This document shows positions 22,422 to 59,376 of a stretch of 64,000 bases of DNA, piece after piece. Every line of letters begins with the position of its first letter. Position 1 is the first letter of the stretch. Origin of the DNA: Patescibacteria group bacterium. Its GTDB lineage: Bacteria > Patescibacteriota > Dojkabacteria > GCA-002793355. The DNA is taken from positions 2,310 to 66,309 of the forward strand of contig BOKM01000001.1 in assembly GCA_016860985.1 (NCBI GenBank), in the 5' to 3' direction. A program made the position numbers and the translations under genes. The notes below the pieces were generated by a model. The model was not told the origin of the DNA and ran no database searches. It saw nothing but the letters and a program-made list of their open reading frames with translations.

Positions 22422-22504
22422 TCTTTATTATACTCTCTGAGTTATTTGTAATAATAATTATCTTGGAACTAGACTTACATCAAGATTCGCGGTACTTGTG
22501 GTGT

Positions 22505-24605: not shown

Positions 24606-24611
24606 GGAGTA

Positions 24612-29828: not shown

Positions 29829-29829
29829 T

Positions 29830-30276: not shown

Positions 30277-30349
30277 AGCACTGATTATAGCATAAAATTA
30301 TTGATAAATAGGTTTGGGAGTATAAGGACTTTAGAGTACAATATTCTAT

Positions 30350-30673
30350 ATGATATATTCAAAAGAAGATCAAGAATTGATCCAAAAAGCAATTAGTTTC
30401 TTAGTTGAGAACTTCAATAAATCAGGTAACAACAATAAGCCTGTTATCCTTCATAGCATTCGGCTTGCGATGCGCCTTTACGACAAAGGGAAAAAGGCAT
30501 CAGTAGTTGTTGGAGCTCTTCTGCACGATTTGTTGGAAGATACACAGGTTACATTGTCTAACATTACGTCGAAATTCGGTATTGTACATAGTTCTTTTAA
30601 CGCTTGTAGCTCATTTTCCACTCGTTTTACAAAAACCTCTATCTCCATATATTCATTATACAGTGATTTATAA
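30350..30673 (+). pseudogene. truncated HD-domain (RelA/SpoT-type hydrolase-like) gene fragment
   Basis: HSIRLAMRL...ALLHDLLEDT are HD-domain metal ligands, but the ORF ends after 107 aa in low-complexity sequence where the family normally continues. Probable remnant. Confidence 0.4.
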
Positions 30674-30833
30674 TAGTATTATCCTAAGCTAATCTGAATT
30701 CCAACATGCGCCCAAGTCCTTATTGGTGTAGATGATTGGGATTCAGTAATACAGGCCGATTTAAACCTGACGTTTGACATTGGCAAGCTGCCTAAATTTA
30801 TCTTAGAGTAGCTAGAGTATATTCCCATAGTAA

Positions 30834-33104
30834 TTGTTGTATAATTCTTATATGTGGAAACTTCTTAAGAATTGGCGTGAAGTTCTAATTAAGTCCGACT
30901 TCGAGGTAAACCAAAAACTAAAACACTTGCTAGAAACAACCACAGGTTCGATTCTTGTAAGTGGGGACAGAGGTGTAGGCAAAACACATATTATTCAAAC
31001 CATCTCAAGGGAAAAGTCAGATTCAATGATATTTATTTGGCTAAATACAATAAAGATAAACGCAGTAAGTGAAAAGGGAACCAATTTGCCAGACCAAGTT
31101 GAAAGCCTGAACATTCTATTTATATTGAAATTTCTTATTGAGGAACTTTCCTCTTTAGGCTTGCCGGAACAAAAAATCTTAAAGAGCATAAAAAAAGATT
31201 TATATATTACTGAAAAAGCTATCACCTCAGATTCTAAACTTAGTGTAAACAACTCTGGGGCAGAGGTCGGTTATCGACAGTCAGTAAACGAAAAATGGCA
31301 AGGATACACTACAGCACAACTATCTTCAACACTTGCGAATTACTTAGTTGATGTAAAGGGTCATATAGGTATGACTGGCTTTGAGAAGATTATGCACGCT
31401 TTTGGTTCTGTCGGGATTGGAATCGGAAACGCGTTCCAAAAGTTTTTCAATAAACGAACTGAGCGAATTGTCTTTGTATTCGATGAACTTGATGATATTG
31501 GTGACATTAATTTGCTACTTGACCTAATTAAAAAGTTCAAAAATCTTTTCATGAGATCTGGCATTAGCTTTTTATTTATTACCTCTTCGAATGTATATGA
31601 GACTGTGACAAACCTAGAATCAGCTTTTACCTCAGGACAAGAAGACAAATATCGAACAATATTTTCAGACATAGTTTACATTCGTAGATATACTATATCC
31701 ACGTTGACCAAACATATCAGCAATCTGACTTTAGTTAAGTCAGATAATTTTGATGCTTTGTCCACATATTTAGCAATTGAGGCTAAAGGAAATATCTATA
31801 ATTTGAGACGTACAATAGCAGCAAGAGAAGTTTTTGATGGAGACGAAATAGTACTCAGACATTCAGATATTGATAAGAAATCGGTAAGTGTAGTAAATTA
31901 TGCATTTAGAATCGGAGAATTACTAATAGAAAAGTGTGGATTTGAGCAATATATCGAAGATCTGTTATATATGACGCTTTATGAATATACCTCCGATCTT
32001 CTGCTTTATTTGTCAGGCACAAGGCAAGAAAGTAGAAAGACACGCTTTGAACTGTATCAGAAAAACACTAGTTATACGAAGTCAAAAAAGAATTTAATAG
32101 AAAAATTTATTAACGAATTTTTTGAAACACTATCTGTAATCATTACATCGCAACCAAACGGAATTAACTTTGGTGAGGAATCCCAAACTATTTCGTGGGA
32201 GGATGTAAAAGAAAAAATTGACAGCAATATTGACGTGTTGGATCTTTTATGGTCAATTACTCCAAGCCATCGTCGTTTCTACGAGAAGTACCTAAGTGTC
32301 ACTGAGATGGTAAAAATTGTATTCAAGCAAGATGATATCCTAAAATCTTCTCAATTAAGGGAACACGAAATGATTAATGATGAAACTTCGCTAGAAATCA
32401 AGAATGCACTTGAGCAGGCAACACTTACAGTACGTAAAGGATCTTCTTCTGTGACAGAGAGGGGAACGGCAATTCTCACTGATATTGAAAACAAGATAAA
32501 TAAGTATTGGGATTTTTCAAAAGGTATTCTGCTAAGAAAGGATACAGACGGAATCGAGTATAATCGAACTGAGCATACTGTCAAATTTAATCAGCAAAAT
32601 GCGATTACATCTTCACCAACAACCAGATTGTATACTCACCTACTTGAAGGTTCATATAAAAGCAAATTTGACATAGAATATACGGTGAAGACATCCTACA
32701 ACAAGTCAACTGTTGATGTTCTACTCTATTTTGCTGAGCAATATACCGGGACAGCGTCAGACGCATACTATATTGTAAGAATTACTGCACAAGATCCACC
32801 TTCAGAATTTAATAGAGCTGGAATTTTGCTTAAGGATTCCAATATTGAGTATGATAAAGCTTGGTATCTCATTAACCAACCAGTTAAAGTCAAGGCAATT
32901 GGTTTAAACGAACCCTATACCATAAGAATAAAACTTGATAAAGGAATAATAACATTATATTTAAAGAAACAATCGAAAGAAAAGTACACATCAACTGATA
33001 CTGTAGAATCGTATCAAGTAAATCAAGAAAGTAGTTTTAGTCATATCATCACGACAAGTCAAGGACATCCAATAGAGATTTTAAATATAATAAAGAAGGA
33101 ATAG
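30834..33104 (+). CDS. P-loop NTPase, KAP-family-like (756 aa)
   Basis: Walker A GDRGVGKTH and a distant Walker B RIVFVFDELDDIGD about 170 aa downstream (KAP-like spacing and hhhhDxLD form), with a long non-catalytic C-terminal half. Confidence 0.5.
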   Translation: MLYNSYMWKLLKNWREVLIKSDFEVNQKLKHLLETTTGSILVSGDRGVGKTHIIQTISREKSDSMIFIWLNTIKINAVSEKGTNLPDQVESLNILFILKFLIEELSSLGLPEQKILKSIKKDLYITEKAITSDSKLSVNNSGAEVGYRQSVNEKWQGYTTAQLSSTLANYLVDVKGHIGMTGFEKIMHAFGSVGIGIGNAFQKFFNKRTERIVFVFDELDDIGDINLLLDLIKKFKNLFMRSGISFLFITSSNVYETVTNLESAFTSGQEDKYRTIFSDIVYIRRYTISTLTKHISNLTLVKSDNFDALSTYLAIEAKGNIYNLRRTIAAREVFDGDEIVLRHSDIDKKSVSVVNYAFRIGELLIEKCGFEQYIEDLLYMTLYEYTSDLLLYLSGTRQESRKTRFELYQKNTSYTKSKKNLIEKFINEFFETLSVIITSQPNGINFGEESQTISWEDVKEKIDSNIDVLDLLWSITPSHRRFYEKYLSVTEMVKIVFKQDDILKSSQLREHEMINDETSLEIKNALEQATLTVRKGSSSVTERGTAILTDIENKINKYWDFSKGILLRKDTDGIEYNRTEHTVKFNQQNAITSSPTTRLYTHLLEGSYKSKFDIEYTVKTSYNKSTVDVLLYFAEQYTGTASDAYYIVRITAQDPPSEFNRAGILLKDSNIEYDKAWYLINQPVKVKAIGLNEPYTIRIKLDKGIITLYLKKQSKEKYTSTDTVESYQVNQESSFSHIITTSQGHPIEILNIIKKE

Positions 33105-33190
33105 GACGTCTTCTTCGTGAATATTGCGGTTATCTTAAAGGTAAAATCCTCCATGGTGTATAATAAATGTATTGATGCTTTTCGCATTAA

Positions 33191-33275
33191 TCATATTCAC
33201 GGAAATTCGATATCATTCAAAAAATATTCATAGAAATTTAAGGAAATTCAAAAAAATATTCATGGGCATTCAAAG
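33191..33275 (+). repeat. iteron-like direct repeats (ATTCAAAAAA(A)TATTCAT x2 plus partial copies) upstream of the ParB-methyltransferase gene
   Basis: 33215-33231 and 33246-33263 are near-identical 17/18-mers 14 nt apart. Partial copies at 33191-33210 and 33268-33276. Confidence 0.5.
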
Positions 33276-33278
33276 TGT

Positions 33279-33310
33279 TTGTGTGTAACGCGCAAATACA
33301 ATTGTATAAT
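33279..33310 (+). promoter_or_regulatory. candidate sigma70-type promoter (TG-TATAAT -10 element) for the ParB-methyltransferase operon
   Basis: TGTATAAT at 33303-33310, 18 nt upstream of the ATG at 33328. A weak TTGTGT -35-like hexamer lies 20 nt upstream. Confidence 0.35.
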
Positions 33311-33327
33311 TTTTTACTAACAATTTA

Positions 33328-34656
33328 ATGGACAATTCACTAACCATCGTCAATGTTTTAATTGACGACTTAATTAGTGCCGACTACAATCCTCGCAAGT
33401 GGGATCAGAAGGCTTTAAACGACCTAAGAGCGAGCATTAAGAAGTTCGGTCTGGTTGACCCTGCTCTAGTAAATGGTGCAACCAATCGCAAAAACATTGT
33501 CATTGGTGGCCACATGCGTATTGCAGCAGCAAAATCACTAGGTATTACCGAAATGCCTGTTGTTTATCTAAACATTCCTGATTTAGAGAAGGAAAAGGAG
33601 CTTAATCTTAGACTGAATAAAAATCAGGGAGAGTTTGATTTCAAACTACTTGCACACTTTGCAGAAGATTTTCTTACTGACATTGGTTTCAATTCAGAAG
33701 AGATGGACTCCATCTTTGATTGGGAAGACGATACACCTGAAGTATTCGATCTTCAAAAGGAACTTGAGAAACTCAACATCAGTAAAATTGAGATAGAAAA
33801 GGGAGATGTCTGGCAACTTGGAGAGAATCGATTAATGTGTGGTGACTCCACAATTCAAGAAGATATTCAAAAGCTACTTAATAACGAGAAAGCTGACATG
33901 GTTATGACTGACCCACCGTATATTCTTGATTACTTGCATGGGAAAACTAAGCACGGTAAAGCGACAGAAGGATTCGGTTATAAACGAGACAGAAAGTATT
34001 TAGAAACAGATTCCATACCTGAAAACTTCACAGAACTGTGGATGAAGAATATCTCAGAAGTAGCCAAAGAGAACTTTCATATAATTGTCTATGAAAATTG
34101 GAAAAACATTAGGACTATTTGGGCAGAGATGGAAAAGTACTGGAAAGTTAAGAATATGATTGTCTGGCATCTACCTAACCGCAACCAAAGTTTTGCAGCA
34201 AAGTACAAATTCTTTTCTAAACATGATATTGCTATGGTTGGCTCTTCTTATACCGAAGAGGCCTTTAATCTTGAAATGGAGGAGAAACTCCTACAAAACG
34301 AGTATGAGACTGCACTCTATGCAATATCAGGTAAACCACATTGGGAAGGCTACGAAAAAGGTAAGAAGATTCAGCCAACTGACTTTCTTGAATACAATGC
34401 TTCAGACGAGAAACATTCGGGTCAAGGAATTGTCTTTGGTACAAAACCTATTGAGATCCTAATTCCATATATCAAAGTACTTACTAAGCGTGAAGATTTA
34501 GTAGTAGAACCATTTGGTGGAAGTGGATCTACACTTATTGCGTGTCAAAAACTAAAAAGGAGATGTTTTATCATGGAAAAATCGCCAGTATATGCTGAGG
34601 TCATTCGCAACCGATGGGAGAAACTCACTAAACTTAAAGCTACGAAGATAGTGTGA
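33328..34656 (+). CDS. ParB-like nuclease domain fused to an N6/N4 DNA methyltransferase (phage-type orphan methylase)
   Basis: N-terminal ParB/Srx motif (LVDPALVNG...IVIGGHMRIAAAK), central MTDPPY, and C-terminal EPFGGSGST (motif I). About 78% aa identity to 56133-57479. Confidence 0.85.
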   Translation: MDNSLTIVNVLIDDLISADYNPRKWDQKALNDLRASIKKFGLVDPALVNGATNRKNIVIGGHMRIAAAKSLGITEMPVVYLNIPDLEKEKELNLRLNKNQGEFDFKLLAHFAEDFLTDIGFNSEEMDSIFDWEDDTPEVFDLQKELEKLNISKIEIEKGDVWQLGENRLMCGDSTIQEDIQKLLNNEKADMVMTDPPYILDYLHGKTKHGKATEGFGYKRDRKYLETDSIPENFTELWMKNISEVAKENFHIIVYENWKNIRTIWAEMEKYWKVKNMIVWHLPNRNQSFAAKYKFFSKHDIAMVGSSYTEEAFNLEMEEKLLQNEYETALYAISGKPHWEGYEKGKKIQPTDFLEYNASDEKHSGQGIVFGTKPIEILIPYIKVLTKREDLVVEPFGGSGSTLIACQKLKRRCFIMEKSPVYAEVIRNRWEKLTKLKATKIV

Positions 34657-35036
34657 AAATTTCTTTAAAGAAACAGGTTCTTGAACAACTTAAGAAGACT
34701 CCGATAATTCAAGTAACCTGCGAAAAACTAGGAATAGCACGTGCTACCTTCTATCGATGGAAACAACGTGACCAGAAGTTCTCAACTTCGGTAGACAAGG
34801 CTTTACTTGAAGGCTCACTGCTGATTAACGATATGGCTGAGAGTCAACTCATTACGCAAATCAAGAATGCTAACATGACTGCAATTATCTTCTGGCTTAA
34901 GTACCACCATAGAGGATATACAAAAGAAGTTCTGGCTACTCTACCAAATCAGCCGACAAAAATTAAGGTGGAGATTATAAGAAGTAAATCTGATCTTGAG
35001 AATTCGGATAAGAAGGAAGTTCGTAAAGTAAGTTGA
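34653..35036 (+). CDS. terminase small subunit-like HTH protein
   Basis: GIARATFYRWKQRD (HTH) and AIIFWLKYHH. Paralog of 57476-57874. GTG start overlapping the upstream stop (GTGA). Confidence 0.5.
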   Translation: MKISLKKQVLEQLKKTPIIQVTCEKLGIARATFYRWKQRDQKFSTSVDKALLEGSLLINDMAESQLITQIKNANMTAIIFWLKYHHRGYTKEVLATLPNQPTKIKVEIIRSKSDLENSDKKEVRKVS

Positions 35037-35078
35037 TCTGCTAGATTTCTTGACGCGAAAAGAATAAAATTACATCAC

Positions 35079-38000
35079 ATGAGTGCTATCGAAAAATATA
35101 TTGAAGAAGTAATAAAGACTTATAAGACTGGGCATGCACGCGAGCATGCATATAGACCTGCGCTAGAGACTCTTATTGAAGAGATAAATCCCAATATAAA
35201 TGCAGTAAACGACCCTAAACAGCAAAAGGTGGGTGCCCCTGATTTCGTATTGCTTAAGGGGAAAACACCAATTGGTTACATTGAAGCAAAAGACATTGAT
35301 GTAAATCTGGAGAGCGAATTCAAAACAAAGAATCAATTTAATCGATATAAGTCTTCACTCAACAATATTTGTTTTACTAATTGTCTGGATTTTCATTTCT
35401 ATGTAAATGGAGAAGCAATCTCGAGAGTCAGTGTTGGAAAACTGGAAGCTGGAAAAATATCAATACTCACTGAAAACCTTCCTTTACTTGAAAGCTTGCT
35501 TGTCAATTTTACGACACTGAAGTCAATCTCAATTCGTAGTCCAAAAGAACTAGCATTCTTAATGGCTGAGAAGGCTAAAATGCTCAAAAATGTAGTCTAC
35601 TTATCGCTAAAAGAGGGATCTGAAGTGAAGGGACAGGTAGAACAACAATATGAAGTTTTTAAACAGATGTTAATCCACGACCTTTCATTGGAGCAATATG
35701 CTGATATATATGCCCAAACAGTCGCATATGGGATGTTTGCTGCGCGCTTCCATGATAAATCTCTTGATACATTTACAAGAGATGAGGCAAATAACTTATT
35801 GCCAAAATCAAATCCTTTTCTGAGAAATTTCTTTCAAACGATTGCTGGATACAATATCGATGAGCGTATTGTATGGATAGTTGATGATCTTGCAGAACTT
35901 TTCAATCACGTAAATGTCCGCGAATTGCTTGAAAATTTTGGAAAGGATACGAAAAGGAGCGATGTAATTGTCCATTTTTATGAAACTTTTCTTTCCGAAT
36001 ATGATGCAAAGATGCGCAAAGCCAGAGGTGTCTATTACACACCAGAGCCAGTCGTTGATTTCATTGTGAGAGCCGTTGATGATATTTTAAAAACTGAGTT
36101 TGGCATAACTGATGGCCTTGCTGATACAAGTAAAATTGACGTTGAAAAGGAAGTTCAGGGATTAAAGAAAAAGCAGAAGGTAAAGGAACATCGTGTCCAA
36201 GTACTTGACCCCGCAACTGGAACAGGTACATTTTTAGATCACGTTATCAAACATATCTACAACACAAAATTTAAAGGACAACAAGGTATTTGGCAAGGTT
36301 ATGTTGATGAGCACCTACTACCTAGGCTACATGGATTTGAAATTCTCATGGCAAGTTATTCAATGGCACATCTTAAACTTGATATTACTCTTGCAGAGAC
36401 TGGCTATGATTCATCTAAAGGGCAAGGGAAGCGTTTAGGTGTATACCTCACAAACTCACTCGAAGAGCCCGAAGCACATCAAAAAGACCTGTTTTCTCAA
36501 TGGCTAACGACTGAAAGTATGGAAGCAAACGAGGTGAAGAAGGAAAAGCCAATTATGGTGGTTATGGGAAATCCGCCTTATAGCGGTGAGAGTTCAAACA
36601 AAGGCAAATGGATTATGGATTTAATGGAAGACTACAAATTTGAACCAGGAGGCCAAGAAAAGTTAAACGAACGAAATCCCAAGTGGATCAATGATGATTA
36701 TGTGAAGTTTATTAGATTTGCGCAACATTATATCGAAAAAAATGGCGAGGGAATACTTGCATTTATTAATCCTCATGGCTTTTTAGATAATCCTACGTTC
36801 AGGGGAATGCGATGGAAGTTGTTATCTGTTTTCGACAAGATATATACTATTGATCTACACGGGAATACAAAAAAGAAGGAACTTACGCCCGATGGATCCA
36901 AGGACGAGAATGTGTTTGACATAATGCAAGGAGTAAGCATAAATCTTTTTGTAAAAAAGCGAGATTCAAGAAATAAGTTGGCAAATGTTTATTCTAAGGA
37001 TCTTTACGGTAAAAGAAATATAAAATATGATTTTCTGTCTACTAATAGAATTGGGGATATAAAATGGAACAAACTAGATCCCCATAATGACATGTATTTC
37101 TTTGTTCAGAAAGACTTTGAATTACTTAACGAATACGAACAAGGTATTAAGGTTAACGAGTTATTTCCAGTAAATAACGTTGGCATCGTTACTTCAAAAG
37201 ATGCGATTTTAGTTTCCGAAGATGAGGAGAAGTTACTCAAGAATGTACAAGAACATTATCAGATTAATACTGATAAAAACAAAGTTAAGAGAATTTCTTA
37301 TAGACCTTTTGATGATAGATTTGTCTATTATGATACAAAATTGATAGAGAGAGCAAGATACGAAGTAATGCAGCACTTAATAAAAGGTGCGAATTACGGA
37401 ATAATAATTCCAAGACAAGCAATTACAGACAACTATTCACACGTAAATATAACTCGGTATATGACTGACAATCGGTATCAATACAGCAATAAAGGAGTAA
37501 CAACAGAAGTTCCTCTCTATTTATACAAAGACTCCACACTACTTACAGCGACAAGAGAACCAAATCTTAGCAGAACGCTAATTACAGATATTGCCACAAA
37601 ACTAAAGCTCCAGTTTATGAACGACCATGAGCATGCAGATTCAGGAAAAGCAGGCACATTCAATCCATTAGATATTCTCGATTACATTTACGCAATCTTA
37701 CACTCACCATCATACCGAGAACGCTATAAAGAATTTCTTAAAATTGATTTTCCACGAATCCCGTTTACATCAGATCAAAAGTTATTCTGGTCTTTAGTAG
37801 AAAAAGGGAGAGAAATTCGACGATATCACTTAATGGAGCATACAAACAGCAGTTCATTAATAACACAGTACCCTGTTTCTGGTGAAAATGAAGTTATCAA
37901 CCCTAGATACTCCGATAATAAAGTTTGGATAAATGATACGCAGTATTTTGATGATGTACCTCAAATTGCATGGGGATTTTACATTGGTGGATACCAACCA

Positions 38001-38147
38001 GCACAGAAGTGGCTAAAGGATAGAAAAGGAACGAAGCTAACTTTTGACGATGTGTTACATTATCAACAGATTATTGTTGCCTTGACTAATACAGACAGAA
38101 TTATGCACGAGATTGATAGTTTGGCGATGACTTGGCCTCTAAAATAG
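35079..38147 (+). CDS. Type IIG restriction-modification enzyme (MmeI-like: N-terminal PD-(D/E)XK endonuclease + gamma-class N6-adenine methyltransferase + target-recognition domain)
   Basis: N-terminal GAPDFVLLKGKTPIGYIEAKD (PD...EAK), central LDPATGTGTF (motif I) and VVMGNPPYSGE (NPPY), about 400 aa of C-terminal target-recognition domain. 1022 aa. Confidence 0.75.
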   Translation: MSAIEKYIEEVIKTYKTGHAREHAYRPALETLIEEINPNINAVNDPKQQKVGAPDFVLLKGKTPIGYIEAKDIDVNLESEFKTKNQFNRYKSSLNNICFTNCLDFHFYVNGEAISRVSVGKLEAGKISILTENLPLLESLLVNFTTLKSISIRSPKELAFLMAEKAKMLKNVVYLSLKEGSEVKGQVEQQYEVFKQMLIHDLSLEQYADIYAQTVAYGMFAARFHDKSLDTFTRDEANNLLPKSNPFLRNFFQTIAGYNIDERIVWIVDDLAELFNHVNVRELLENFGKDTKRSDVIVHFYETFLSEYDAKMRKARGVYYTPEPVVDFIVRAVDDILKTEFGITDGLADTSKIDVEKEVQGLKKKQKVKEHRVQVLDPATGTGTFLDHVIKHIYNTKFKGQQGIWQGYVDEHLLPRLHGFEILMASYSMAHLKLDITLAETGYDSSKGQGKRLGVYLTNSLEEPEAHQKDLFSQWLTTESMEANEVKKEKPIMVVMGNPPYSGESSNKGKWIMDLMEDYKFEPGGQEKLNERNPKWINDDYVKFIRFAQHYIEKNGEGILAFINPHGFLDNPTFRGMRWKLLSVFDKIYTIDLHGNTKKKELTPDGSKDENVFDIMQGVSINLFVKKRDSRNKLANVYSKDLYGKRNIKYDFLSTNRIGDIKWNKLDPHNDMYFFVQKDFELLNEYEQGIKVNELFPVNNVGIVTSKDAILVSEDEEKLLKNVQEHYQINTDKNKVKRISYRPFDDRFVYYDTKLIERARYEVMQHLIKGANYGIIIPRQAITDNYSHVNITRYMTDNRYQYSNKGVTTEVPLYLYKDSTLLTATREPNLSRTLITDIATKLKLQFMNDHEHADSGKAGTFNPLDILDYIYAILHSPSYRERYKEFLKIDFPRIPFTSDQKLFWSLVEKGREIRRYHLMEHTNSSSLITQYPVSGENEVINPRYSDNKVWINDTQYFDDVPQIAWGFYIGGYQPAQKWLKDRKGTKLTFDDVLHYQQIIVALTNTDRIMHEIDSLAMTWPLK

Positions 38148-38192
38148 TTAGATTAGGAATAAATGACTTTAATAAGAAAGTTCTAGAAATAT

Positions 38193-38684
38193 ATGGTAAA
38201 CATACCTGATACTAACTTATTCATAGGTTCACGATTTGATCTAAGGTTAACCAATGAATCCGAATGGGCATACGCGCACGTTACAAAAAAGAGTCACCAA
38301 GAAAAACTTGGATATTTTAAAGCATTACCACCGACACATCCCAATTACATATTTTTTGAGGATACAAATCATATGTACGTGAATTGGGTAGATACACCAC
38401 AAGCAAGGTTCTACGATTTCCCAACTGGACAAGGTGTTCCTAATTTTATTCGTGTTTTAGATTTCATAGAAAAGTGGATTAAGAACCGCAAAGTGTTAGT
38501 GCATTGCGACCTTGGGGAATCTCGTAGCCCTACTACAAGCCTAACCTATTTGGCTAAACGTACTGAGATTTTACCAAACACTAGCTTTGAAGATGCTAGA
38601 AAAGAGTTTACTAAAATGTACCCAAGCTATAACCCGAGTGGAATCGCAAACTTTGTCTCAGATAATTGGAATTTGATCATATAA
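38193..38684 (+). CDS. dual-specificity/tyrosine protein phosphatase-like protein
   Basis: VLVHCDLGESRSPT is the CX5R(S/T) P-loop signature of Cys-based phosphatases. Confidence 0.7.
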   Translation: MVNIPDTNLFIGSRFDLRLTNESEWAYAHVTKKSHQEKLGYFKALPPTHPNYIFFEDTNHMYVNWVDTPQARFYDFPTGQGVPNFIRVLDFIEKWIKNRKVLVHCDLGESRSPTTSLTYLAKRTEILPNTSFEDARKEFTKMYPSYNPSGIANFVSDNWNLII

Positions 38685-38686
38685 TT

Positions 38687-40108
38687 ATGTTAACAAAGTC
38701 CGATTTTGTTGCATACATTGATTCCCCAAGGCACCTATGGGCAATCAAACACAATAAACTTACCGAAGTAGAACATAATGCATTTCTCAATCATTTGTTC
38801 GAGCAAGGATATGATGTTGAAGAGTATGGCGAAAAATATATTAGGGAAATATTGGTTCCAGAATACGAAGTTTCTAGCAACAATATCTTATTCCAACCAA
38901 CCGCCAATGATGGAGAGTTTGAAGCTCGGGCTGATGTACTGATCAAAAACCCTAAAACGAACAAATGGGACATGTACGAGATTAAAAGTTCGACAGAAGT
39001 AAAGAGACAGCACAGGTATGATGTTACGTTTCAGTCACTTGTATTTGGGAAGAATTATGAATTAGGCGAGATATTCATACTCCATCTGAACCCTGATTAT
39101 ACAAGAACCGGTGAAATCGATATTGCGAAACTTTTTACGAGAACTAATCTTACAAAAGTTGTCTCTGACTTAATTCATGAAGTCCAAATATTACGATACG
39201 AAGCGCTTGAGGTTATATCTGAAGACGACTATTCATTAGTACAGTCATGTATTCGCCCGAAATTATGCCCTTGCTTGGGAATTTGCCATCAAAACTTACC
39301 AGACTACTCCATATACGATATCAATAATCTGACAGCAAATGAAAAGAAAATTCGCGAACTGGAAAAATTGGGCTTTATTAGCATCGATGACGTTCCACTC
39401 AATTTCGCACTCTCAGAAAAACAAAGGTTTCAAGTTCAGATTGCGCAAAATAATCAAACATACATTAATTCTAATTCTATTGAGAAAAGTTTCGAAAAGT
39501 TACAGTATCCGATTTACTTTGTTGATTATGAATCGTTCAATCCGGCAATACCCATGTTTGATAGTTACAAGCCATACGACCAAATTCCATTCCAGTGGTC
39601 GCTTCACATAAAAGAAGATTTAACATCTGAATTGAAACATTATGAATTTATTGAAACACAACAGATTGATCCTATTGTTAATTTTCTAAGTGCTATGCAG
39701 GCCGTAGTCGGGACAAATGGTTCAATCATAGTATGGAACAAGGCATTCGAAGGCACGCAGAACAAAAGAATGGGGGAAATTCATTCAGAATTTAAAGATT
39801 ATTGTGAAAATATGAATTCGCGGCTATTTGATCTTATGGAAATTTTCAGAGATGGACTATACGCAGATCGAAAATTTAAAGGTAGTTATTCAATTAAAAA
39901 AGTTCTGCCAGTACTTGTACCTTCACTTAGTTACAAAGGTATGAATATTGCAGAGGGTGCGACAGCGATGGCGAGTTGGAATGATATGGTTTTCGGAAAT
40001 ACCGATGACGAACAAAAAGCACAGCTTAGGGCTGATCTTTTAAAGTACTGTGAGCTTGATACTTTGGCGATGGTAAGGATTTTCGAGAAACTCGCCGAAT
40101 TGCTTTAA
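38687..40108 (+). CDS. DUF2779-like protein (PD-(D/E)XK-type N-terminus plus C-terminal RNase-H-like region)
   Basis: EARADVLIK...YEIKSST (D/E-x-K) at the N-terminus, and YFVDYESFNPAIPMFDSYKPYDQIPFQWSLH matches the conserved DUF2779 motif as recalled. Start 2 nt after the phosphatase stop. Confidence 0.5.
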   Translation: MLTKSDFVAYIDSPRHLWAIKHNKLTEVEHNAFLNHLFEQGYDVEEYGEKYIREILVPEYEVSSNNILFQPTANDGEFEARADVLIKNPKTNKWDMYEIKSSTEVKRQHRYDVTFQSLVFGKNYELGEIFILHLNPDYTRTGEIDIAKLFTRTNLTKVVSDLIHEVQILRYEALEVISEDDYSLVQSCIRPKLCPCLGICHQNLPDYSIYDINNLTANEKKIRELEKLGFISIDDVPLNFALSEKQRFQVQIAQNNQTYINSNSIEKSFEKLQYPIYFVDYESFNPAIPMFDSYKPYDQIPFQWSLHIKEDLTSELKHYEFIETQQIDPIVNFLSAMQAVVGTNGSIIVWNKAFEGTQNKRMGEIHSEFKDYCENMNSRLFDLMEIFRDGLYADRKFKGSYSIKKVLPVLVPSLSYKGMNIAEGATAMASWNDMVFGNTDDEQKAQLRADLLKYCELDTLAMVRIFEKLAELL

Positions 40109-40146
40109 ACCCCAGACTTCATCCTTCTTTGCGTTACTTGTTGTGC

Positions 40147-40203
40147 ATGGAACAACCAACCAATACACCACTCACCTACTGCCTCTATACCAGAAAGTCA
40201 TCT
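40147..40203 (+). pseudogene. 5' remnant of a serine recombinase gene (first about 19 codons: MEQPTNTPLTYCLYTRKSS) with the conserved recombinase leader
   Basis: 40113-40146 aligns to the 34 nt upstream of both intact recombinase genes (…CAGACTTC.TCCTTCTTTGCG.TACT.GT.GT..ATGGAA). The coding similarity ends after the KSS codons, then a stop follows at 40222-40224. Confidence 0.55.
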
Positions 40204-40300
40204 ATGTTAAGTTACAAGTTTTAATAAGACCGTATTTATCCCAATTGTTGTTACAGTTCCTTCTTCAGCGTATAATTCAAGATAATGTGTTTTTGTAATC

Positions 40301-43300
40301 ATGAATACAGCCACTAAAGAGTTCATATATTGCAAACGCTGTAACGTCATCCTCCGATTGTCTAGTAATGACATGAAGGAAGAGAGTGTATCTTGTCCAA
40401 AATGTAACACCATAAATGAATTAGTTACTGCTGTATCCCCAGCGTACTCTCCTAGAAAAGTAAATTGTACGAACTGCAATTCAGTATTAATGCTAAATAA
40501 TAAGGAGCGATTACGTGGTGCTTTAATACATTGCCCAGAGTGCAAGATGGACTTCAATAACACCCTCGAGCGACTTAACGAGATTCCGGAAGAATTAACA
40601 GTTGAATCGACAGCGGATAATAATAACGAACAGTCAAATATTTCTAAGTTTTCTACTCCACCTATATACCACAACGATAGTGCTCTTTCTGAGAATACTG
40701 ATAACAACGAAGCTATTCAAAAGTCAGAAGCAAAGGTTTCGCAAATTAAGTTCGACAAAACATTTATTAAACGTTTACTTGACAAACTAAAAGTTGGGAA
40801 TGCGAGATCAATTCATCTCAATGCAGTTCCTGGTAGATCTGCCACGAGACTTGACCTGTATCAACTTTCTGATATTGATAAGGATTTGCCAAAAAACTTC
40901 CTCGACAAGTTGATGACTAACGATTCTTTTTCGTTCACGATTTCGTATGATAAAGTAAATCTCGGAGAAATTGACGATGAAGCGAAAAGAAAACTTGCTT
41001 TGATTACGAAACGATTGAACACAATAGTCATTGAAAATACAGACAGCCTTTTAGAGTATGGATTAGAGAATTTTGGTTTTGGATATCCATTACTAATCAA
41101 GAGAGATCACAATGATCCAAGCAAGGTCGTAAAAGCACCATTATTCATCTGGAATTTGAACTTAGAGAGGTCCACTCAAAATAAAAACACATGGGTTATA
41201 AAAAGAGGCGAAGATTACCCAATAAAAATCAATGAGCTTTTGATCTCTCACATAACAAAGGATGAATCAATTCAGATAGAAAAGATACCTAAAGATATTC
41301 TCGAAGATGGCATCCTGGATGAAAGTGAACTCCTTAAATTAACAAAGGTTATTTTATCCCAATTAAATACCACAAGCATCCCCTCTGAAATTAAGTTAGA
41401 AAAGTGCCCGGACGCAAAGGAGATTGATGATATCGCAAATTCGAAGCCATGGATTCAATGGAGTGGAATATTCGGCATCTATAGGTCTCAGAATGAAACA
41501 ATAATTCACAGTACTGAGGAGTTGCTTTCACGTTTAGATGAGTTTTCAAGTGAAAGTTTGACTTTAGAACCATTTCAAACATCCACAGTAACTTCAGTAG
41601 AAACAGACCCAAGCAAAGAGGAGATCGTAAACACACTAACAAAGGATGAAATAAAGTTGATCCAAGGACCACCAGGTACAGGAAAAAGCCAAAGTATTAC
41701 AGCTATTGTTTCAAATGTTTTATCCAACAATGGGAAATGTTTAATCGTATGCGAGAAGAAGACAGCATTAGATGTTATATACACGATCTTAACTAAAATA
41801 GGGTTAGGGCAATTATCCATACTTATTGACGATGTAAACAAGGATAGAAAGCTAGTAATTGAAAAAGCCAGAACAATACGAGAGAGTCCAGGAGCTCCAT
41901 ATTTCTCCCAGCGAAGTTATAATGACCTTTATGCAAAGTTTTCAGCATTGAAGGAGAAAATAAATTCAAAGTATTCTGAGTCACTAAGAAGCGTGCTCGG
42001 TGATTTAAACTGGAAACAATTAATTGGTTTGTATCTACGATATTCGAAAGAAGTTTGTTTCAACGATATTCTGGGAAGACTAAACTACAATGATTGTAAT
42101 TTCAACTACGATGAGTACTCTCTCTTGGTATCATTCATTGAGGAGGCAAGTCAACTTTATAGTGAATTGGGTAATGATTCTGAATCGGCATTTGAGATTG
42201 TAAACAAGTCGATTTTTTCAACGCGTTATAAATGGACTGAACACGAAAAATTAAAGAGCGTAACATCCGAGTATCTTGATATCATTTCTGCGTTAGAGAA
42301 ATTTACTGCAGGAAAAAAACAAGGCGAGTTTGAGAAATTTGGTGTATCAACTTTTGATGTGGATGCGATTAATAACTCACTGAGCTTAATCAATTTGCTT
42401 ATCGAATCACTCGAAAAAGCCGTCAAATCATTTAGAAAAGGAACAGGGCTCATCGGAAAGGAGTTTTGGTGCCAAAATGCTTTCACAAAATTCATAATGA
42501 GAGCAAAAGCTCTATACACAAATAAGTATAAGACTTCCCTTTTGTTGGAAAAAACCATAATAAAGCACTTTAAAGAAGCGAAGAGCTTAATCTATGGGCT
42601 TCGAAAATATAATATTTCAATTAGTGAATTGGTACAAAGTAGTAAATACGAAAGTACTGAAGAAGAGCTCTCATATATTGGGAATATTATTATTGAGGCA
42701 AACACTATCAGACTTCAGATTGAAGATCTCGCTAAATACCGAGCATTTCTTGAAGACATTGAAACGCGACTATTGAAACTTGAGTCCACAAACGTCGTGA
42801 ACTATAAGAATACTAGGCTCGCCGACATCAAAAGCCTCAGTTCACTAAACAAATTTAAGGATCAACTCAAGCTTTTGTTTGAGCGATTATCATTACATCT
42901 TGACTCATTTGAAAGTTATCATAACTGGAAATACTTTTTAGGAAATATAGATAATTATAAGACTAAACTTGTAACAGCATTTCTTGATATTCCTCCTGAA
43001 AATTGGAGAAATTTATTCATCGCATGGTATTACCGAGGAGCTTTGCATAATTTTGAGAGTAAATCGAGTATCGGATTTAATAATTCCGACACATCTCTGA
43101 ATCAATTAAGTGATTTTTATTCTGAATTGAAAAAACAACAAATTGATCAAATAAAGTTCACATGGAGTACAAATCAATTCAAGCTTTTTGAAAAAACCAC
43201 TTACAATTTCAACCTGCTTTACAATTTAAGAAAGAACCATGTTGGTCCCAAAAACTCTCTTAGGAACCTTATTGAAAAGGACTTTAATCTATTTACGACA

Positions 43301-44719
43301 ATGTTTCCAATAATCTTAACAAACCCTGCGGCGGCTAACGCCATCCTCCCTCTAAAACAAGGCCTTTTTACCGTAGTAATCTTTGATGAAGCGAGTCAGC
43401 TAAAAGTATCTGATACTTTTACGACATTCATTAGGGGCCAGTACAAAATCATTGCAGGAGACGAACACCAAATGCCACCTTCCTCTTATTTTCAAAGTAA
43501 TGCAGATTTACTGGACATTGACGAAGATGATACAAATGATGTCTTCACAGAGACTGACGAGCAAATTGCTTTGTCAGAAAGTGAATCACTGCTTCAATAT
43601 GCGACAGACTTACCACACGTTAATAAATCGTACTTAGATTTTCACTACAGATCCAATCATCAAGCCTTAATTAACTTCTCAAACAACGCTTTCTATGGTG
43701 GCAATTTAGTTACATTCCCTCATTTTGAAGTTTACAGACCAATTGAATTTAGAGCGGTAAATGGGCGCTATGAAACAAGAACAAACCCATCCGAGGTAGC
43801 AGAAATCTTGAAGATTCTTCAGATAGAGATTCACACAAATCAAAATGGGAAATACCCTTCAGTTGGCATAGCAACATTTAATATTAACCAAAGAAACTTA
43901 ATAATTGAAACACTAAACAGGGTTGCCGAAGAAGATCCCACCTTTGGAAGTAAGTTACGTGAACTGAAAGAGAACGGGTTGTTTGTCAAAAATCTAGAAA
44001 ATATTCAAGGTGACGAAAGAGATATTATTATTATTTCAACAACATATGGTATTCAGCCAGACGGAACCTTCTCCCAGAATTTTGCTAGATTAAATAGAAT
44101 CGAGGGGTATAAACTTCTAAATGTATTGATTACCCGAGCAAAACATAAACTATATGTATGCACCTCAATTCCAAAAAACAAGTACATTTCCTACCCTGAA
44201 TTAATTAAAAGTGAGGGCAACAATAAAAGAGGAATTCTTTACGCTTATTTAGCGTATTCAGAAGCAATATCCGCAGGTGATAACGATACTGCAGAAGGAA
44301 TTTTGGAATTACTAAAAACCCAAAGTTATGAAAAACCTAGAATAATGTCTGCGAACGACGGACTATCAGAATCACCCTTTGAAGAAGAAGTATACGACCT
44401 GTTATCAAAACATTTCCCTGCGGAAAAGATCATTCAGCAGCATAAAGTCGGTGGATTCCGCCTTGATTTTATAATTAAGTCCAAAATTAAGGATATCGTA
44501 ATCGAATGTGATGGTAAGGCATACCATTCCACAGAAGAAGCATATGCTTATGATATGTTTAGACAAAAGGAGTTGGAAAAAATGGGATTCATTATATATA
44601 GAATTTGGTCAACCAACTGGTTTAGAGACAAGGAATTAGAAATGAGAAAACTTTTGGGTTTTGTATCAATTACTAACAATGAAAGTCCTGAAGTATTACA
44701 AAAATCATTGCCACTCTAA
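40301..44719 (+). CDS. 1472-aa SF1B (Upf1/DNA2-like) helicase with N-terminal tandem zinc ribbons and a C-terminal DUF559/Vsr-like PD-(D/E)XK endonuclease domain
   Basis: Four CxxC pairs in the first 90 aa. Walker A GPPGTGKSQS, motif II VVIFDEASQL, motif VI VLITRAKHKLYV. C-terminal GFRLDFII...IVIECDGKAYH...FRQKELEKMGFIIYRIW fits DUF559. Confidence 0.7.
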   Translation: MNTATKEFIYCKRCNVILRLSSNDMKEESVSCPKCNTINELVTAVSPAYSPRKVNCTNCNSVLMLNNKERLRGALIHCPECKMDFNNTLERLNEIPEELTVESTADNNNEQSNISKFSTPPIYHNDSALSENTDNNEAIQKSEAKVSQIKFDKTFIKRLLDKLKVGNARSIHLNAVPGRSATRLDLYQLSDIDKDLPKNFLDKLMTNDSFSFTISYDKVNLGEIDDEAKRKLALITKRLNTIVIENTDSLLEYGLENFGFGYPLLIKRDHNDPSKVVKAPLFIWNLNLERSTQNKNTWVIKRGEDYPIKINELLISHITKDESIQIEKIPKDILEDGILDESELLKLTKVILSQLNTTSIPSEIKLEKCPDAKEIDDIANSKPWIQWSGIFGIYRSQNETIIHSTEELLSRLDEFSSESLTLEPFQTSTVTSVETDPSKEEIVNTLTKDEIKLIQGPPGTGKSQSITAIVSNVLSNNGKCLIVCEKKTALDVIYTILTKIGLGQLSILIDDVNKDRKLVIEKARTIRESPGAPYFSQRSYNDLYAKFSALKEKINSKYSESLRSVLGDLNWKQLIGLYLRYSKEVCFNDILGRLNYNDCNFNYDEYSLLVSFIEEASQLYSELGNDSESAFEIVNKSIFSTRYKWTEHEKLKSVTSEYLDIISALEKFTAGKKQGEFEKFGVSTFDVDAINNSLSLINLLIESLEKAVKSFRKGTGLIGKEFWCQNAFTKFIMRAKALYTNKYKTSLLLEKTIIKHFKEAKSLIYGLRKYNISISELVQSSKYESTEEELSYIGNIIIEANTIRLQIEDLAKYRAFLEDIETRLLKLESTNVVNYKNTRLADIKSLSSLNKFKDQLKLLFERLSLHLDSFESYHNWKYFLGNIDNYKTKLVTAFLDIPPENWRNLFIAWYYRGALHNFESKSSIGFNNSDTSLNQLSDFYSELKKQQIDQIKFTWSTNQFKLFEKTTYNFNLLYNLRKNHVGPKNSLRNLIEKDFNLFTTMFPIILTNPAAANAILPLKQGLFTVVIFDEASQLKVSDTFTTFIRGQYKIIAGDEHQMPPSSYFQSNADLLDIDEDDTNDVFTETDEQIALSESESLLQYATDLPHVNKSYLDFHYRSNHQALINFSNNAFYGGNLVTFPHFEVYRPIEFRAVNGRYETRTNPSEVAEILKILQIEIHTNQNGKYPSVGIATFNINQRNLIIETLNRVAEEDPTFGSKLRELKENGLFVKNLENIQGDERDIIIISTTYGIQPDGTFSQNFARLNRIEGYKLLNVLITRAKHKLYVCTSIPKNKYISYPELIKSEGNNKRGILYAYLAYSEAISAGDNDTAEGILELLKTQSYEKPRIMSANDGLSESPFEEEVYDLLSKHFPAEKIIQQHKVGGFRLDFIIKSKIKDIVIECDGKAYHSTEEAYAYDMFRQKELEKMGFIIYRIWSTNWFRDKELEMRKLLGFVSITNNESPEVLQKSLPL

Positions 44720-44849
44720 ATCCTTCAACGTTACTAATGTTTGGTAACTTTATTCAAGAAATTGAATCTAATAACTGCTATCCATAACTCATCGCAGTTT
44801 TGTTATATACCTACTAGACTTCCTCCCTTCTTTGCGGTACTAGTGTTGT

Positions 44850-46190
44850 ATGGAAAACACAATAAAAGTACCTGAATTACGCTACTGTCTCTATGCTCGG
44901 AAATCCTCAGAGTCTGACGAGAAGCAAGCAATGAGTATTGATAGCCAGCTTCACGAAATGAGTGATTTGGCAAAGCGAGATAATATCAACATCGTCGACA
45001 TCATTACAGAAAGCCATTCTGCTAAAGAAACTGGGCAACGACCACAGTTTAACCTTATGGTTGAAGGAATTAGTAGCGGAAAGTATAACGGCATTATAAC
45101 GTGGGCTCCAGATAGAATTTCGAGAAATGCTGGTGACTTAGGTCGAATAGTCGACTTAATGGATCAAGGCAAACTCTCACTTATTAAGACGCATTCCCAA
45201 ACATTTACCAACAACCCAAACGAGAAGTTCCTCCTCATGATTCTCTGCTCCCAAGCAAAACTAGAAAACGACAATAGAGGAATTAATGTAAAGCGTGGTC
45301 TAAAGAGTAAATGTCAGACAGGAGTAAGGCCAACAATGCCACCTCTCGGATATATTAACATCATGCGAGCAAATAGAATCTCAACAGTAATCATAGACCC
45401 AGAAAAGGCTCCAATTATTAAACAGATGTTCACGTACGTTGCTGACAAAGGACTTTCAGGAAGAACCATCCGAAAATGGCTAAGAAAAATTGGATTCAAA
45501 TCAAGAACAGGAAAAGACCTCGTTTTAAGTCTAATCTACAAAATGCTCAAAAATCCCTTTTATTATGGATATTTTAAATACGGTGAGAAAATATACAAAG
45601 GTTCACATGAACCTCTCATATCCAAACAAGTATTTGATAAAGTACAAATACAGTTGCAAACAACACCACGACAGTGGAATAAACAGCTCTACCCTTTTAA
45701 GAAGATTTGCAAATGTGGAAGTTGTGGCAGTAGTATAACTGCAGAAACGAAGTTTCGAGTAGTTCAGAATGGAGACGTTCATCCTCATATCTATTATCAC
45801 TGCAATAGGATAAATGACTATGATTGTCATGAACCCTATATAACGGAAGCTGAACTCATACAGCAACTTGTTGCTCTTATGCCACAAATCAAACTCGACA
45901 AAGAATACATTTGGAACCTATTCCAAGACGAAATCAAACGACTGAATCATCTACAACAAATAATGAATCTGAAAAATAGTGTAGCTTTTGAGACAACTCC
46001 ACATAGGAACAAGTCCAAATCCATAAAGGCGATTAGTGGAAAGGAAACCGAAATGATCAGAGATTATTTCCTACACATTCTTCAGTATGGAACACCGGAA
46101 GAAAGGCAGAACATATTAAGGGGCGTTAAGACGATATTCAAATTGAGAGATCGAGAACTAATGATCAAAAAAACGTCATTGATTACCTAA
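44850..46190 (+). CDS. large serine recombinase, paralog of 22505-23845
   Basis: Same domain signature (YCLYARKSSESDEKQ, CKCGSCGSS zinc ribbon). Identity to copy 1 is mosaic at the DNA level: about 88% in the 5' third, about 99% in the middle. Confidence 0.85.
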   Translation: MENTIKVPELRYCLYARKSSESDEKQAMSIDSQLHEMSDLAKRDNINIVDIITESHSAKETGQRPQFNLMVEGISSGKYNGIITWAPDRISRNAGDLGRIVDLMDQGKLSLIKTHSQTFTNNPNEKFLLMILCSQAKLENDNRGINVKRGLKSKCQTGVRPTMPPLGYINIMRANRISTVIIDPEKAPIIKQMFTYVADKGLSGRTIRKWLRKIGFKSRTGKDLVLSLIYKMLKNPFYYGYFKYGEKIYKGSHEPLISKQVFDKVQIQLQTTPRQWNKQLYPFKKICKCGSCGSSITAETKFRVVQNGDVHPHIYYHCNRINDYDCHEPYITEAELIQQLVALMPQIKLDKEYIWNLFQDEIKRLNHLQQIMNLKNSVAFETTPHRNKSKSIKAISGKETEMIRDYFLHILQYGTPEERQNILRGVKTIFKLRDRELMIKKTSLIT

Positions 46191-47404: not shown

Positions 47405-47458
47405 TTCGGTTCCGAAGCTTCGAACAAAGGAGTATTATATTTTCTGATTTTTAGTGGT
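47405..47458 (+). terminator. possible intrinsic terminator after the DUF805 gene (imperfect palindrome TTCGGTTCCGAAGCTTCGAAC followed by a T-rich tract), coinciding with the start of conserved-element copy C
   Basis: GTTCCGAAG/CTTCGAAC near-palindrome at 47409-47425, then TATATTTTCTGATTTTTAGTGGTTTTT. Confidence 0.3.
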
Positions 47459-47600
47459 TTTTACGTATTACAGGACTACGTTTACACATTTCCGAAAGTA
47501 CCTCTCAAAACAATCGGAGACTTGGTCACTAATTGATAGGACTGACGGGACTTGAAGGAATTCAATGCAAAATGCGGGACATGTGAGTCTGGAACATAAA
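47432..47600 (+). repeat. copy C (5' part) of the conserved noncoding element. Its 3' part (GAGACA...GACAGTATAAAAAAGAG) lies at 47830-47866 after an inserted micro-ORF.
   Basis: 47432-47545 aligns with 24612-24720. The core GATAGGACTGACGGGACTTGAAG is at 47538-47560. Confidence 0.55.
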
Positions 47601-59312: not shown

Positions 59313-59376
59313 ATAAAAAGTGGACTTGTTGCAGGAAAACGAATAAAATATCATATTAAAAGGACATGCTATTTGT

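Follow-up and report, generated by a model that had tools for sequence, protein, structure and literature searches.

A small dual-specificity phosphatase and a DUF2779 dual nuclease as candidate cargo of a patescibacterial defence island

The DNA considered here is a stretch of 64,000 nucleotides (nt) from a bacterium of the Patescibacteria group, lineage Dojkabacteria (assembly GCA_016860985.1, contig BOKM01000001.1, positions 2,310 to 66,309), which we call the window. At 38193-40108 on the + strand it carries a gene for a small Cys-based phosphatase and, directly behind it, a gene for a protein of the family DUF2779 with two predicted nuclease domains. We propose that both genes are cargo of a defence island on a large-serine-recombinase integrative element, in a genome of about 1.05 Mb, a proposal for which we see roughly equal chances of being right and of being wrong. 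A candidate novelty, as judged from sequences, is a mobile family of dual-specificity phosphatases (DSPs) associated with defence islands, together with its recurrent link to an uncharacterised dual nuclease. A preliminary description of the pair had suggested a candidate association with defence, and this is in keeping with the many loci in which both families adjoin defence genes.

The phosphatase gene (38193-38684, + strand) starts with ATG and encodes 163 amino acids (aa); its open reading frame (ORF) and HCX5R P-loop agree with the 163-aa CX5R dual-specificity phosphatase that had been described, and the protein is VHR-like. The loop reads V-H104-C105-D-L-G-E-S-R111-S; its part from H104 to S112 lies at 38502-38528, with the Cys codon at 38505-38507. 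Its HCX5R(S/T) signature is intact, and the stretch reads VLV-H104-C105-DLGES-R111-S-P, with S112 after R111. When 60 family members are aligned, C105, G108, S110 and R111 are conserved in at least 90%, as is D67 of an NWVD motif (codon 38391-38393), which lies 38 residues before C105 and is, from its position, the putative general acid. Searched against the PDB, a profile of seven relatives matched DUSP16, MKP-4 and DUSP3/VHR (about 1e-7), with the P-loops aligned residue for residue. The best fold matches are protein DUSPs (VHR/DUSP3, DUSP12 and MKPs), and polynucleotide 5'-phosphatases of the same fold ranked lower (BVP 9.7, PIR1 8.7, Mce1 8.2). The central beta-sheet of the DSP fold is present, with the P-loop starting the following helix. 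We regard the protein as having the predicted active site and fold of VHR-type dual-specificity enzymes. It matches no family of PADLOC-DB v2.0.0 (E<=0.01), NCBIfam or PHROGs.

The phosphatase stop codon TAA (38682-38684) is followed by 'TT' and then by the ATG of the second gene at 38687, which gives the 2-nt spacing reported earlier. This gene (38687-40108, + strand) encodes 473 aa; its assignment to DUF2779 stands, whereas the length of 474 aa given in the preliminary description counts the stop codon. Pfam DUF2779 (PF11074) matches aa 277-402 at 127.8 bits against a gathering score of 23.3, covering the entire model (1-126), and RNase_H_2 matches aa 331-469 at 20.5 bits, below its cut-off of 22. 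The PD-(D/E)XK-like and RNase-H-like elements noticed earlier prove to have catalytic residues that are invariant in an alignment of 62 homologues of 47-86% identity. The N-terminal part (38687-39226, + strand, about aa 1-180) is a Cas4/RecB-like PD-(D/E)xK nuclease domain with invariant D83, D95, E98, K100 and Q116. Next comes a Cys cluster, C188-x5-C194-x-C196-x3-C200-H201 (39248-39289, + strand), whose named residues are all invariant except C196, which is conserved in at least 90%; it is likely to be a metal or Fe-S site. The C-terminal part (39507-40108 including the stop, + strand) is a DEDDy-type 3'-5' exonuclease domain of RNase H-like type. Its residues D280, E282, E355, Y454 and D458 are invariant in all 62 sequences, and from reading the alignment the predicted motifs are D280-x-E282 (ExoI), N351-x2-F354-E355 (ExoII) and Y454-x3-D458 (ExoIII).

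An AlphaFold2 (AF2) model of the DUF2779 protein has a pLDDT (predicted local distance difference test) of 95.2. Foldseek matched its N-terminal half to Cas4 (4R5Q, 4IC1) and MGME1, and its C-terminal half, weakly, to ERI2 and 3'hExo. The window protein has no Pfam Cas_Cas4 (PF01930) match at E<=0.01, a model matched only by a distant homologue (L018, 29.1 bits), and its score against NCBIfam UU173 is 75.7, far under the cut-off of 225. No PADLOC-DB v2.0.0 family matches it at E<=0.01, while the flanking Type IIG enzyme and helicase match strongly. Earlier work assigned PF11074 to a 3'-5' exonuclease clade with a DUF83-like domain (PMC3985635), and the family, including MMSYN1_0389 of JCVI-syn3.0, has been described as Cas4-like plus DEDD(y), with Tyr replacing His (PMC13621843). 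Judged by its intact catalytic residues, the window protein is predicted to hold two nuclease centres, one Cas4-like PD-(D/E)xK and one DEDDy.

The phosphatase family is small and occurs sporadically across many phyla, within variable regions. A word-indexed search of 5.8 billion proteins found six relatives of at least 43% identity, a distribution unlike that of a conserved housekeeping gene, which is the role that the preliminary description had named as fatal to its reading. When 1.84 billion cluster representatives were searched exhaustively with HMMER, 266 phosphatase representatives had E<=1e-10, and almost all of these are proteins of about 160 aa that stand alone. The fused domains of nine longer members are uninformative, save for one GT1 glycosyltransferase fusion; among such additions, neither those of P0145 (968 aa) nor a shared N-terminal stretch of about 150 aa match anything in Pfam or the PDB. 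IMG/VR holds no relatives, 50,697 phage genomes gave three weak hits to distant DSPs (29-31% identity) and 72,556 plasmids gave two weak hits. The family is neither housekeeping nor typical of phages, and we rejected a phage origin for the phosphatase on the IMG/VR, PHROGs and phage-genome results.

Some phosphatase genes appear to have moved on their own. Eighteen phosphatases of at least 90% aa identity were found in unrelated contexts, on contigs binned to different phyla. In 16 loci (L056 at 7985-8642, L014, L016, L017, L045, L049, L051, L052, L054, L057, L058, L060-L063 and L065) the homology is confined by sharp boundaries to a cassette-like unit consisting of the phosphatase gene, 82-94% identical in nt, with some 40-90 nt before it and some 150 nt after it. 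We considered an integron gene cassette. In the conserved 3' flank, some 150 nt long, we recognised no clear attC or R''/R' core sites (no integrase was searched for), and shuffled sequence folds equally well (z -0.3). The sharp limits of homology suggest that this cluster behaves like a mobile cassette. The closest relatives of the window phosphatase are 75% identical (L003/L004, after a PD-ExK-like protein) and 72% identical (L005, after a SMODS-SLATT pair), and the DNA homology of these loci to the window is restricted to the phosphatase gene. The operon at L005 (8124-10489), which adjoins a serine recombinase, consists of overlapping genes for a SMODS/AGS_C nucleotidyltransferase, a SLATT_4 effector and the 72% identical phosphatase. 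We classify this locus as a CBASS-like system (CBASS, cyclic-oligonucleotide-based anti-phage signalling system) in which a DSP is the third gene.

Pattern scans located 18 phosphatase loci in a one-genome-per-species collection and 80 metagenome loci; the survey of the family covered 100 loci from many phyla. The query was the seven-sequence alignment, the 60-sequence alignment being too divergent, and the locus sets are therefore biased to closer relatives. The 18 loci are labelled Anaerolineae, WOR-3, Bacteroidota, Clostridia, Omnitrophota, Planctomycetota, Elusimicrobia, Saccharibacteria, Cloacimonadota and Endomicrobiales. In 81 of 89 loci the gene before the phosphatase points in the same direction as it does, and the median gap is 36 nt; for the gene after it the figures are 56 of 84 loci and 133 nt. 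The phosphatase is therefore typically the last gene of a cluster. Most annotated partners are defence genes, and they are diverse: SMODS/AGS_C with SLATT_4 (L005), Eco57I-like Type IIG enzymes (L019, L014), OLD nucleases (L022, L073), an SMC-like ATPase (L023), TPR-HEPN_LA2681 (L016), Bro-N with HsdS downstream (L026), Type III Mod/Res with HSDR_N-STAND (L095/96), HsdR downstream (L117), UvrD-PDDEXK (L121), PDDEXK_1 and DUF4238 (three loci each), RhuM (two loci), and ThsB_TIR and Abi_C (one locus each). The neighbours also include Type I S, R and M genes, and a PADLOC scan of the upstream neighbours was dominated by redundant Type I specificity models. The placement beside defence genes recurs in unrelated genomes, as counted over the surveyed loci. 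No protein kinase was seen among the immediate neighbours in the surveyed loci.

For the DUF2779 family, restriction and defence neighbours likewise recur in unrelated genomes, again as counted over the surveyed loci. Named relatives come from Patescibacteria and Dojkabacteria. The family occurs on 29 plasmids and in eight IMG/VR contigs, and 50,697 phage genomes gave six partial hits. Its neighbours are a Type ISP enzyme and Pif1 (L038), Type III Res and Pif1 (L034), GmrSD (L031, L033, L035), HsdR nearby (L030), a STAND NTPase (L036), a group of SWI2/SNF2, SMC-like, HARE-HTH and N6/N4 methylase genes (L039; HTH, helix-turn-helix) and a C5 methylase cluster (L041). On an Aliarcobacter plasmid it neighbours a PD-(D/E)XK nuclease and a WYL gene, near an OLD-type endonuclease, and on a Planktothrix plasmid a DEAD helicase, an ATPase and a PLD protein.

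Several smaller regularities were seen around DUF2779. The GmrSD genes, which encode Type IV restriction enzymes, are immediately beside it in three of the eight IMG/VR contigs. A PD-(D/E)XK nuclease gene directly before DUF2779, followed by a transcription-factor-like gene, occurs at L018 (6986-11612, Clostridia) and L126 (4905-8334), the latter being Aliarcobacter butzleri plasmid NZ_CP104379.1; the last gene is a WYL gene in L126 and an HTH-M78 peptidase gene in L018, where a phosphatase is inserted between the nuclease and DUF2779. In three loci of patescibacterial type (L039 5752-10812, L069 285-1016, L038 9820-10548) a HARE-HTH gene lies at most two genes from DUF2779, and the slot directly before DUF2779 in L039 holds a PNPOx_N-like gene of 171 aa.

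Among the immediate neighbours of the phosphatase, no Pfam family is seen as often as DUF2779. The preliminary description had made its reading depend in advance on the two families co-occurring elsewhere, and we found them adjacent in five independent lineages out of about 60 phosphatase lineages. With redundancy removed, DUF2779 accounts for 5 of the 132 gene clusters adjacent to a phosphatase and for none of the 461 non-adjacent ones of these loci (Fisher p=5e-4). The phosphatase precedes DUF2779 in three cases, follows it in one and is convergent with it in one. In the window lineage the phosphatase comes first, with the 2-nt gap; L018 (labelled Clostridia) has the order PD-(D/E)XK, phosphatase, DUF2779 and HTH-M78 peptidase; L069 has HARE-HTH, phosphatase, DUF2779 and serine recombinase; L095/96 has the convergent pair, behind a Type III system; and in L110 the phosphatase follows DUF2779. 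The linked phosphatases are not mutual nearest relatives, and the DUF2779 proteins paired with them share 27-62% identity; the link was therefore formed or kept several times. L069 shares the backbone of the window (Type IIG C-terminus at 71% nt identity, DUF2779 at 62% aa identity, recombinase), and its phosphatase, 49% identical to that of the window, belongs to another subclade. From these comparisons the slot before DUF2779 appears to be conserved in L069 and its phosphatase allele to have been replaced.

About 55 of the 60 phosphatase lineages have no DUF2779 nearby, and the 17 DUF2779 loci that were found by queries other than a phosphatase (L030-L044 and the plasmid loci L126-L128) all lack a phosphatase. 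The adjacency of the two families exceeds chance and is found in a minority of lineages. Because it occurs in five of about 60 lineages, is enriched and takes three arrangements, we regard the pairing as recurrent yet not obligate.

The genes between 30.8 and 46.2 kb of the window all lie on the + strand. As described earlier, the phosphatase and DUF2779 genes stand downstream of a gene for a Type IIG enzyme (35079-38147), a single-chain restriction and N6-adenine methylase protein of 1022 aa with a Type ISP-like C-terminal specificity domain, which matches PADLOC REase_MTase_IIG at 1060.6 bits, Pfam Type_ISP_C at 266.5 bits, and N6_Mtase, Eco57I and HSDR_N. A gap of 45 nt separates it from the phosphatase gene, and no convincing terminator was found among the three genes. 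The recombinase scar that had been reported behind DUF2779 is also present: 40147-40203 (+ strand) encodes the start of a serine recombinase, 19 codons long (MEQPTNTPLTYCLYTRKSS), and breaks off right at its catalytic-Ser region. A promoter-like site (40248-40276) then precedes a separate defence gene (40301-44719, + strand) for a superfamily 1 (SF1) helicase of 1472 aa, Hhe/ProA/PDC-S37-like and with a C-terminal MTES_1575/DUF559 nuclease, which matches PADLOC PDC-S37 at 434.6 bits and Hhe at 230 bits, and NCBIfam ProA and Hhe under their cut-offs. The 3' end of the element is a large serine recombinase gene (44850-46190, + strand, 446 aa; Pfam Resolvase, Recombinase and Zn_ribbon_recom), which is full-length and intact, not a scar, and 96% identical to a copy at 22505-23845.

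Related loci indicate how this arrangement arose. One locus, L001, equals window 28193-45032 at 100% identity. Another, L002, is homologous to the window only at 35044-40203 (92.6%), ending at the scar, and its flanks differ: upstream are an nSTAND NTPase, a ParB-methylase, a small terminase subunit (TerS) and a large terminase, the helicase is absent, and an intact recombinase gene stands directly after DUF2779. Because the L002 recombinase directly follows DUF2779, the window helicase was probably inserted later into the 5' end of the recombinase gene, and the scar would mark the insertion point of a helicase and recombinase module. Such elements may insert into each other's recombinase genes. 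The Type IIG, phosphatase and DUF2779 genes form one co-directional block of 5.2 kb that is swapped as a unit between element variants.

A second related element begins at about 56 kb of the window with ParB-methylase, TerS and large terminase (TerL) genes at 56133-59312 and extends beyond the window end. The last 5.3 kb of the window (58655-64000) equal part of locus L038, which continues as L038 1-10690 with, in order, a large terminase, a Type ISP restriction-modification (R-M) enzyme of 1614 aa, Pif1, a DUF2779 paralogue (67%), a serine recombinase and HARE-HTH. This second element has the same architecture, with the Pif1 helicase occupying the phosphatase slot. Three repeat pairs in the window share a constant offset of 22.3-22.8 kb: the recombinase genes (22468-23793 and 44813-46138; 91% nt, 96% aa), non-coding sequence after the recombinase (24586-24773 and 47409-47595) and the ParB-methylase/TerS genes (33384-34909 and 56207-57732). 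These observations suggest that related integrative elements are arrayed in tandem, that DUF2779 and a recombinase close each of them, and that the cargo between the terminase and DUF2779 can be swapped.

We hold, with moderate confidence, that the two proteins serve as defence-island cargo consisting of an end-processing nuclease and a portable phosphatase accessory. RecBCD and AddAB degrade restricted DNA in other bacteria, and the DUF2779 protein would most plausibly be a DNA-end-processing effector of comparable effect, chewing both strands of the linear ends left by the neighbouring restriction enzyme. It would be able to degrade both strands at a DNA end because it combines a 5'-end nuclease with a 3'-5' exonuclease, and in other elements the Pif1 helicase might assist it. 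The phosphatase, in turn, would be an accessory joined to the 3' end of varied, mostly DNA-targeting defence operons, where it might dephosphorylate proteins and so keep neighbouring defence proteins active and unphosphorylated, or return them to that state, for example after attack by a phage kinase. Protein dephosphorylation is our leading candidate for its chemistry, held at somewhat less than an even chance. Because the P-loop and structural matches are DUSP-like, no cognate kinase was seen and the many partners mostly target DNA, a generic protein-acting accessory is the most economical reading, and our confidence in any specific phosphatase mechanism is low.

A specific version of this idea can be drawn from a 2026 report that phage T7 encodes a dual-specificity kinase whose stoichiometric phosphorylation of nucleic-acid-binding proteins disables DNA-targeting defences (PMC13645617). 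The family of DSPs of about 160 aa might then be an 'anti-kinase guard', stripping the phosphates that T7K-type kinases place on restriction enzymes, OLD proteins and Cas4-like/DUF2779 nucleases. We give this guard role little probability. If it were true, hosts would have a means of countering a broad counter-defence of phages, and the arms race would gain a new layer.

Several considerations weigh against our preferred reading. The functional claims rest on guilt by association, the ORF finder that delivered the neighbour genes was crude, and short contigs from metagenome-assembled genomes carry unreliable phylum labels. Some phosphatase neighbours have no defence annotation (GNAT proteins, hydrolases and unknowns), and some partners, such as the SLATT pore and TIR proteins, are not DNA-binding enzymes. 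The match of the window phosphatase to Pfam DSPc (PF00782; E=1.4e-7, 31.8 bits) falls below the gathering score of 33.5, which some family members pass (P0145 at 38.2, P0249 at 41.4, P0273 at 40.2). Enzymes of the DSP fold also include phosphatases that act on RNA, lipids, glucans and inositol phosphates, and the substrate cannot be read from sequence or fold. Phages of these bacteria have, to our knowledge, not been reported to carry kinases. As for DUF2779, no R-M genes were seen beside it in the Dojkabacteria loci L043 and L044, and it is quasi-essential in JCVI-syn3.0 (PMC13621843). In view of these two facts, part of the family may have a housekeeping repair role, and mobile elements may merely borrow such a repair protein.

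Among the alternatives, the one that survives best concerns the chemistry. The phosphatase might strip 5' (or 3') phosphates from nuclease-made DNA or RNA ends and so act as an 'anti-repair' enzyme: breaks could then not be ligated by host or phage ligase, phage genomes would stay uncircularised and the DUF2779 exonucleases would be given suitable ends. This is the main alternative to protein dephosphorylation, and we consider it unlikely. It fits well with neighbours that are mostly nucleases (Type IIG, Type I and III R-M, OLD, three PD-(D/E)xK, UvrD-PDDEXK, five DUF2779 and a HEPN RNase) and with the lack of a kinase gene near the phosphatase. However, the P-loop HCxxGxSRSP is of the kind found in protein DUSPs (VHR/DUSP3, DUSP12, MKPs), which also give the best fold matches, RNA phosphatases of the DSP fold bear loops of the HCTHGxNRT type instead, and the SLATT and TIR partners create no nucleic-acid ends.

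A quite unlikely alternative is that phage defence is not involved at all, DUF2779 being the element's own nuclease for recombination, replication or end processing and the phosphatase a passenger. The position of DUF2779 directly before the serine recombinase in L002, L038 and L069 would suit such a role, as would the plasmid and IMG/VR occurrences and the quasi-essentiality in a minimal cell, and one phosphatase cluster acts as a self-contained cassette in unrelated contexts. Outside this element family, however, DUF2779 adjoins GmrSD (three times), Type III and HsdR genes with no recombinase nearby, and the phosphatase has neighbours too consistently devoted to defence, and a last-gene position too regular, for random landing.

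The preliminary description had favoured a dedicated two-gene unit. In its strict form, with the phosphatase toggling DUF2779 and both proteins needed together, we find this very unlikely. About 90% of phosphatase lineages lack DUF2779 and follow other defence genes, as do the closest relatives (72-75%), the phosphatase is missing beside most DUF2779 genes, among them the paralogue at a distance of 20 kb, and the order and orientation vary up to the convergent pair of L095. These facts outweigh the 2-nt gap, which suggests translational coupling, the significant recurrence of the adjacency and the slot before DUF2779 that L069 keeps with a phosphatase of a different subclade. That the genes are anti-defence functions of a phage or satellite, shielding the element from host immunity, as had also been raised, is extremely unlikely, since the terminase-like genes upstream and the distant DSPs of a few phages are set against the near absence of both families from phage genomes, IMG/VR and PHROGs and, in other phyla, the position of the phosphatase within chromosomal R-M operons.

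Comparison with known systems places our preferred reading, cargo composed of an end-processing nuclease and a phosphatase accessory, in context. Like VHR/DUSP3, DUSP12 and the MKPs, the window phosphatase is a minimal single domain of about 160 aa. It differs from solved DUSPs in being bacterial, in lacking docking and regulatory domains and in sharing only 14-24% identity with them, and it is set in defence islands, not in a kinase cascade, with no cognate kinase nearby. The TerY-P defence system combines a PP2C phosphatase with a kinase. Defence systems DS-8 and DS-9 contain metallophosphatase/HAD components (PMC13092281). In these systems, as here, a phosphatase lies inside a defence locus and its substrate is mostly unknown. 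The window DSP, in contrast, is Cys-based, has no partner kinase and is a promiscuous add-on to many unrelated systems, where the phosphatases of TerY-P, DS-8 and DS-9 are fixed components. T7K is hyperpromiscuous and biased to nucleic-acid-binding proteins (PMC13645617), and the window phosphatase would be the mirror image of its activity; phosphatases of this kind are not mentioned in the passages that we read.

The DUF2779 protein shares its two-nuclease architecture with MMSYN1_0389 of JCVI-syn3.0 and the UU173 family. It keeps four cysteines (C188, C194, C196, C200) where MMSYN1_0389 keeps two (PMC13621843), and, unlike that protein, it is located on a mobile element beside restriction enzymes and in two paralogous copies. 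With the Cas4, AddB and RecB nucleases it has the PD-(D/E)xK core in common, as D...D/ExK plus the Q motif. It differs from Cas4 in the arrangement of its Cys cluster, in its extra DEDDy exonuclease domain and in that no CRISPR (clustered regularly interspaced short palindromic repeats) or cas genes are evident in the part scanned. In detail, the 64-kb window contains no tandem repeats and so no evident CRISPR array, and no cas family is found among the Pfam hits of the eight proteins encoded at 30.8-46.2 kb, the rest of the window not having been scanned for cas. Together with an SF1 helicase (Pif1) and restriction enzymes, DUF2779 would resemble the end-clearing helicase-nucleases RecBCD and AddAB, from which it differs in having no Chi-recognition machinery and no obligate helicase subunit.

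Cys-based DSPs are not among the described anti-phage components, and our literature searches on DSPs in defence islands found no report linking the two. If the association is real, a compact DSP family would be a general accessory behind many defence systems, not one more effector, and it would offer a concrete way to ask whether bacteria answer the phage kinase counter-defence described in 2026 (PMC13645617). DUF2779 is a widespread family, and from its steady company of restriction enzymes and Pif1 it may serve small genomes as an enzyme that degrades DNA ends in the manner of RecBCD. We believe that both families are credible candidate parts of bacterial immunity. The locus also shows the exchange of defence cargo in tandem serine-recombinase elements, and phage defence in Patescibacteria has been little studied.

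A few features remain to be mentioned at the 5' side of the island. Genes of the APH fold, which is kinase-like, are found a few kb upstream both in the window (26775-27839) and, within a different flank, in L006 (1801-2823). We considered them as a linked kinase and rejected the idea as coincidence, the two genes not being orthologues (25% identity over 97 aa). The upstream part of the island itself (30834-35036) contains genes for a ParB-N6/N4 DNA methylase (33328-34656, + strand, 442 aa; phrog_498 methyltransferase) and a small-terminase-like HTH protein (34653-35036, + strand, 127 aa; phrog_309 terminase small subunit). It has no large terminase, which relatives do carry; in L002 a Terminase_6C gene stands between the TerS-like gene and that of the Type IIG enzyme. 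The first gene of the island encodes an AAA/STAND-like ATPase (30834-33104, + strand, 756 aa) with a weak P-loop/STAND-like N-terminus (AAA_16, 27 bits) and no PADLOC or NCBIfam match. At the equivalent position in L002 is a gene for an nSTAND_NTPase5 protein of 1316+ aa.

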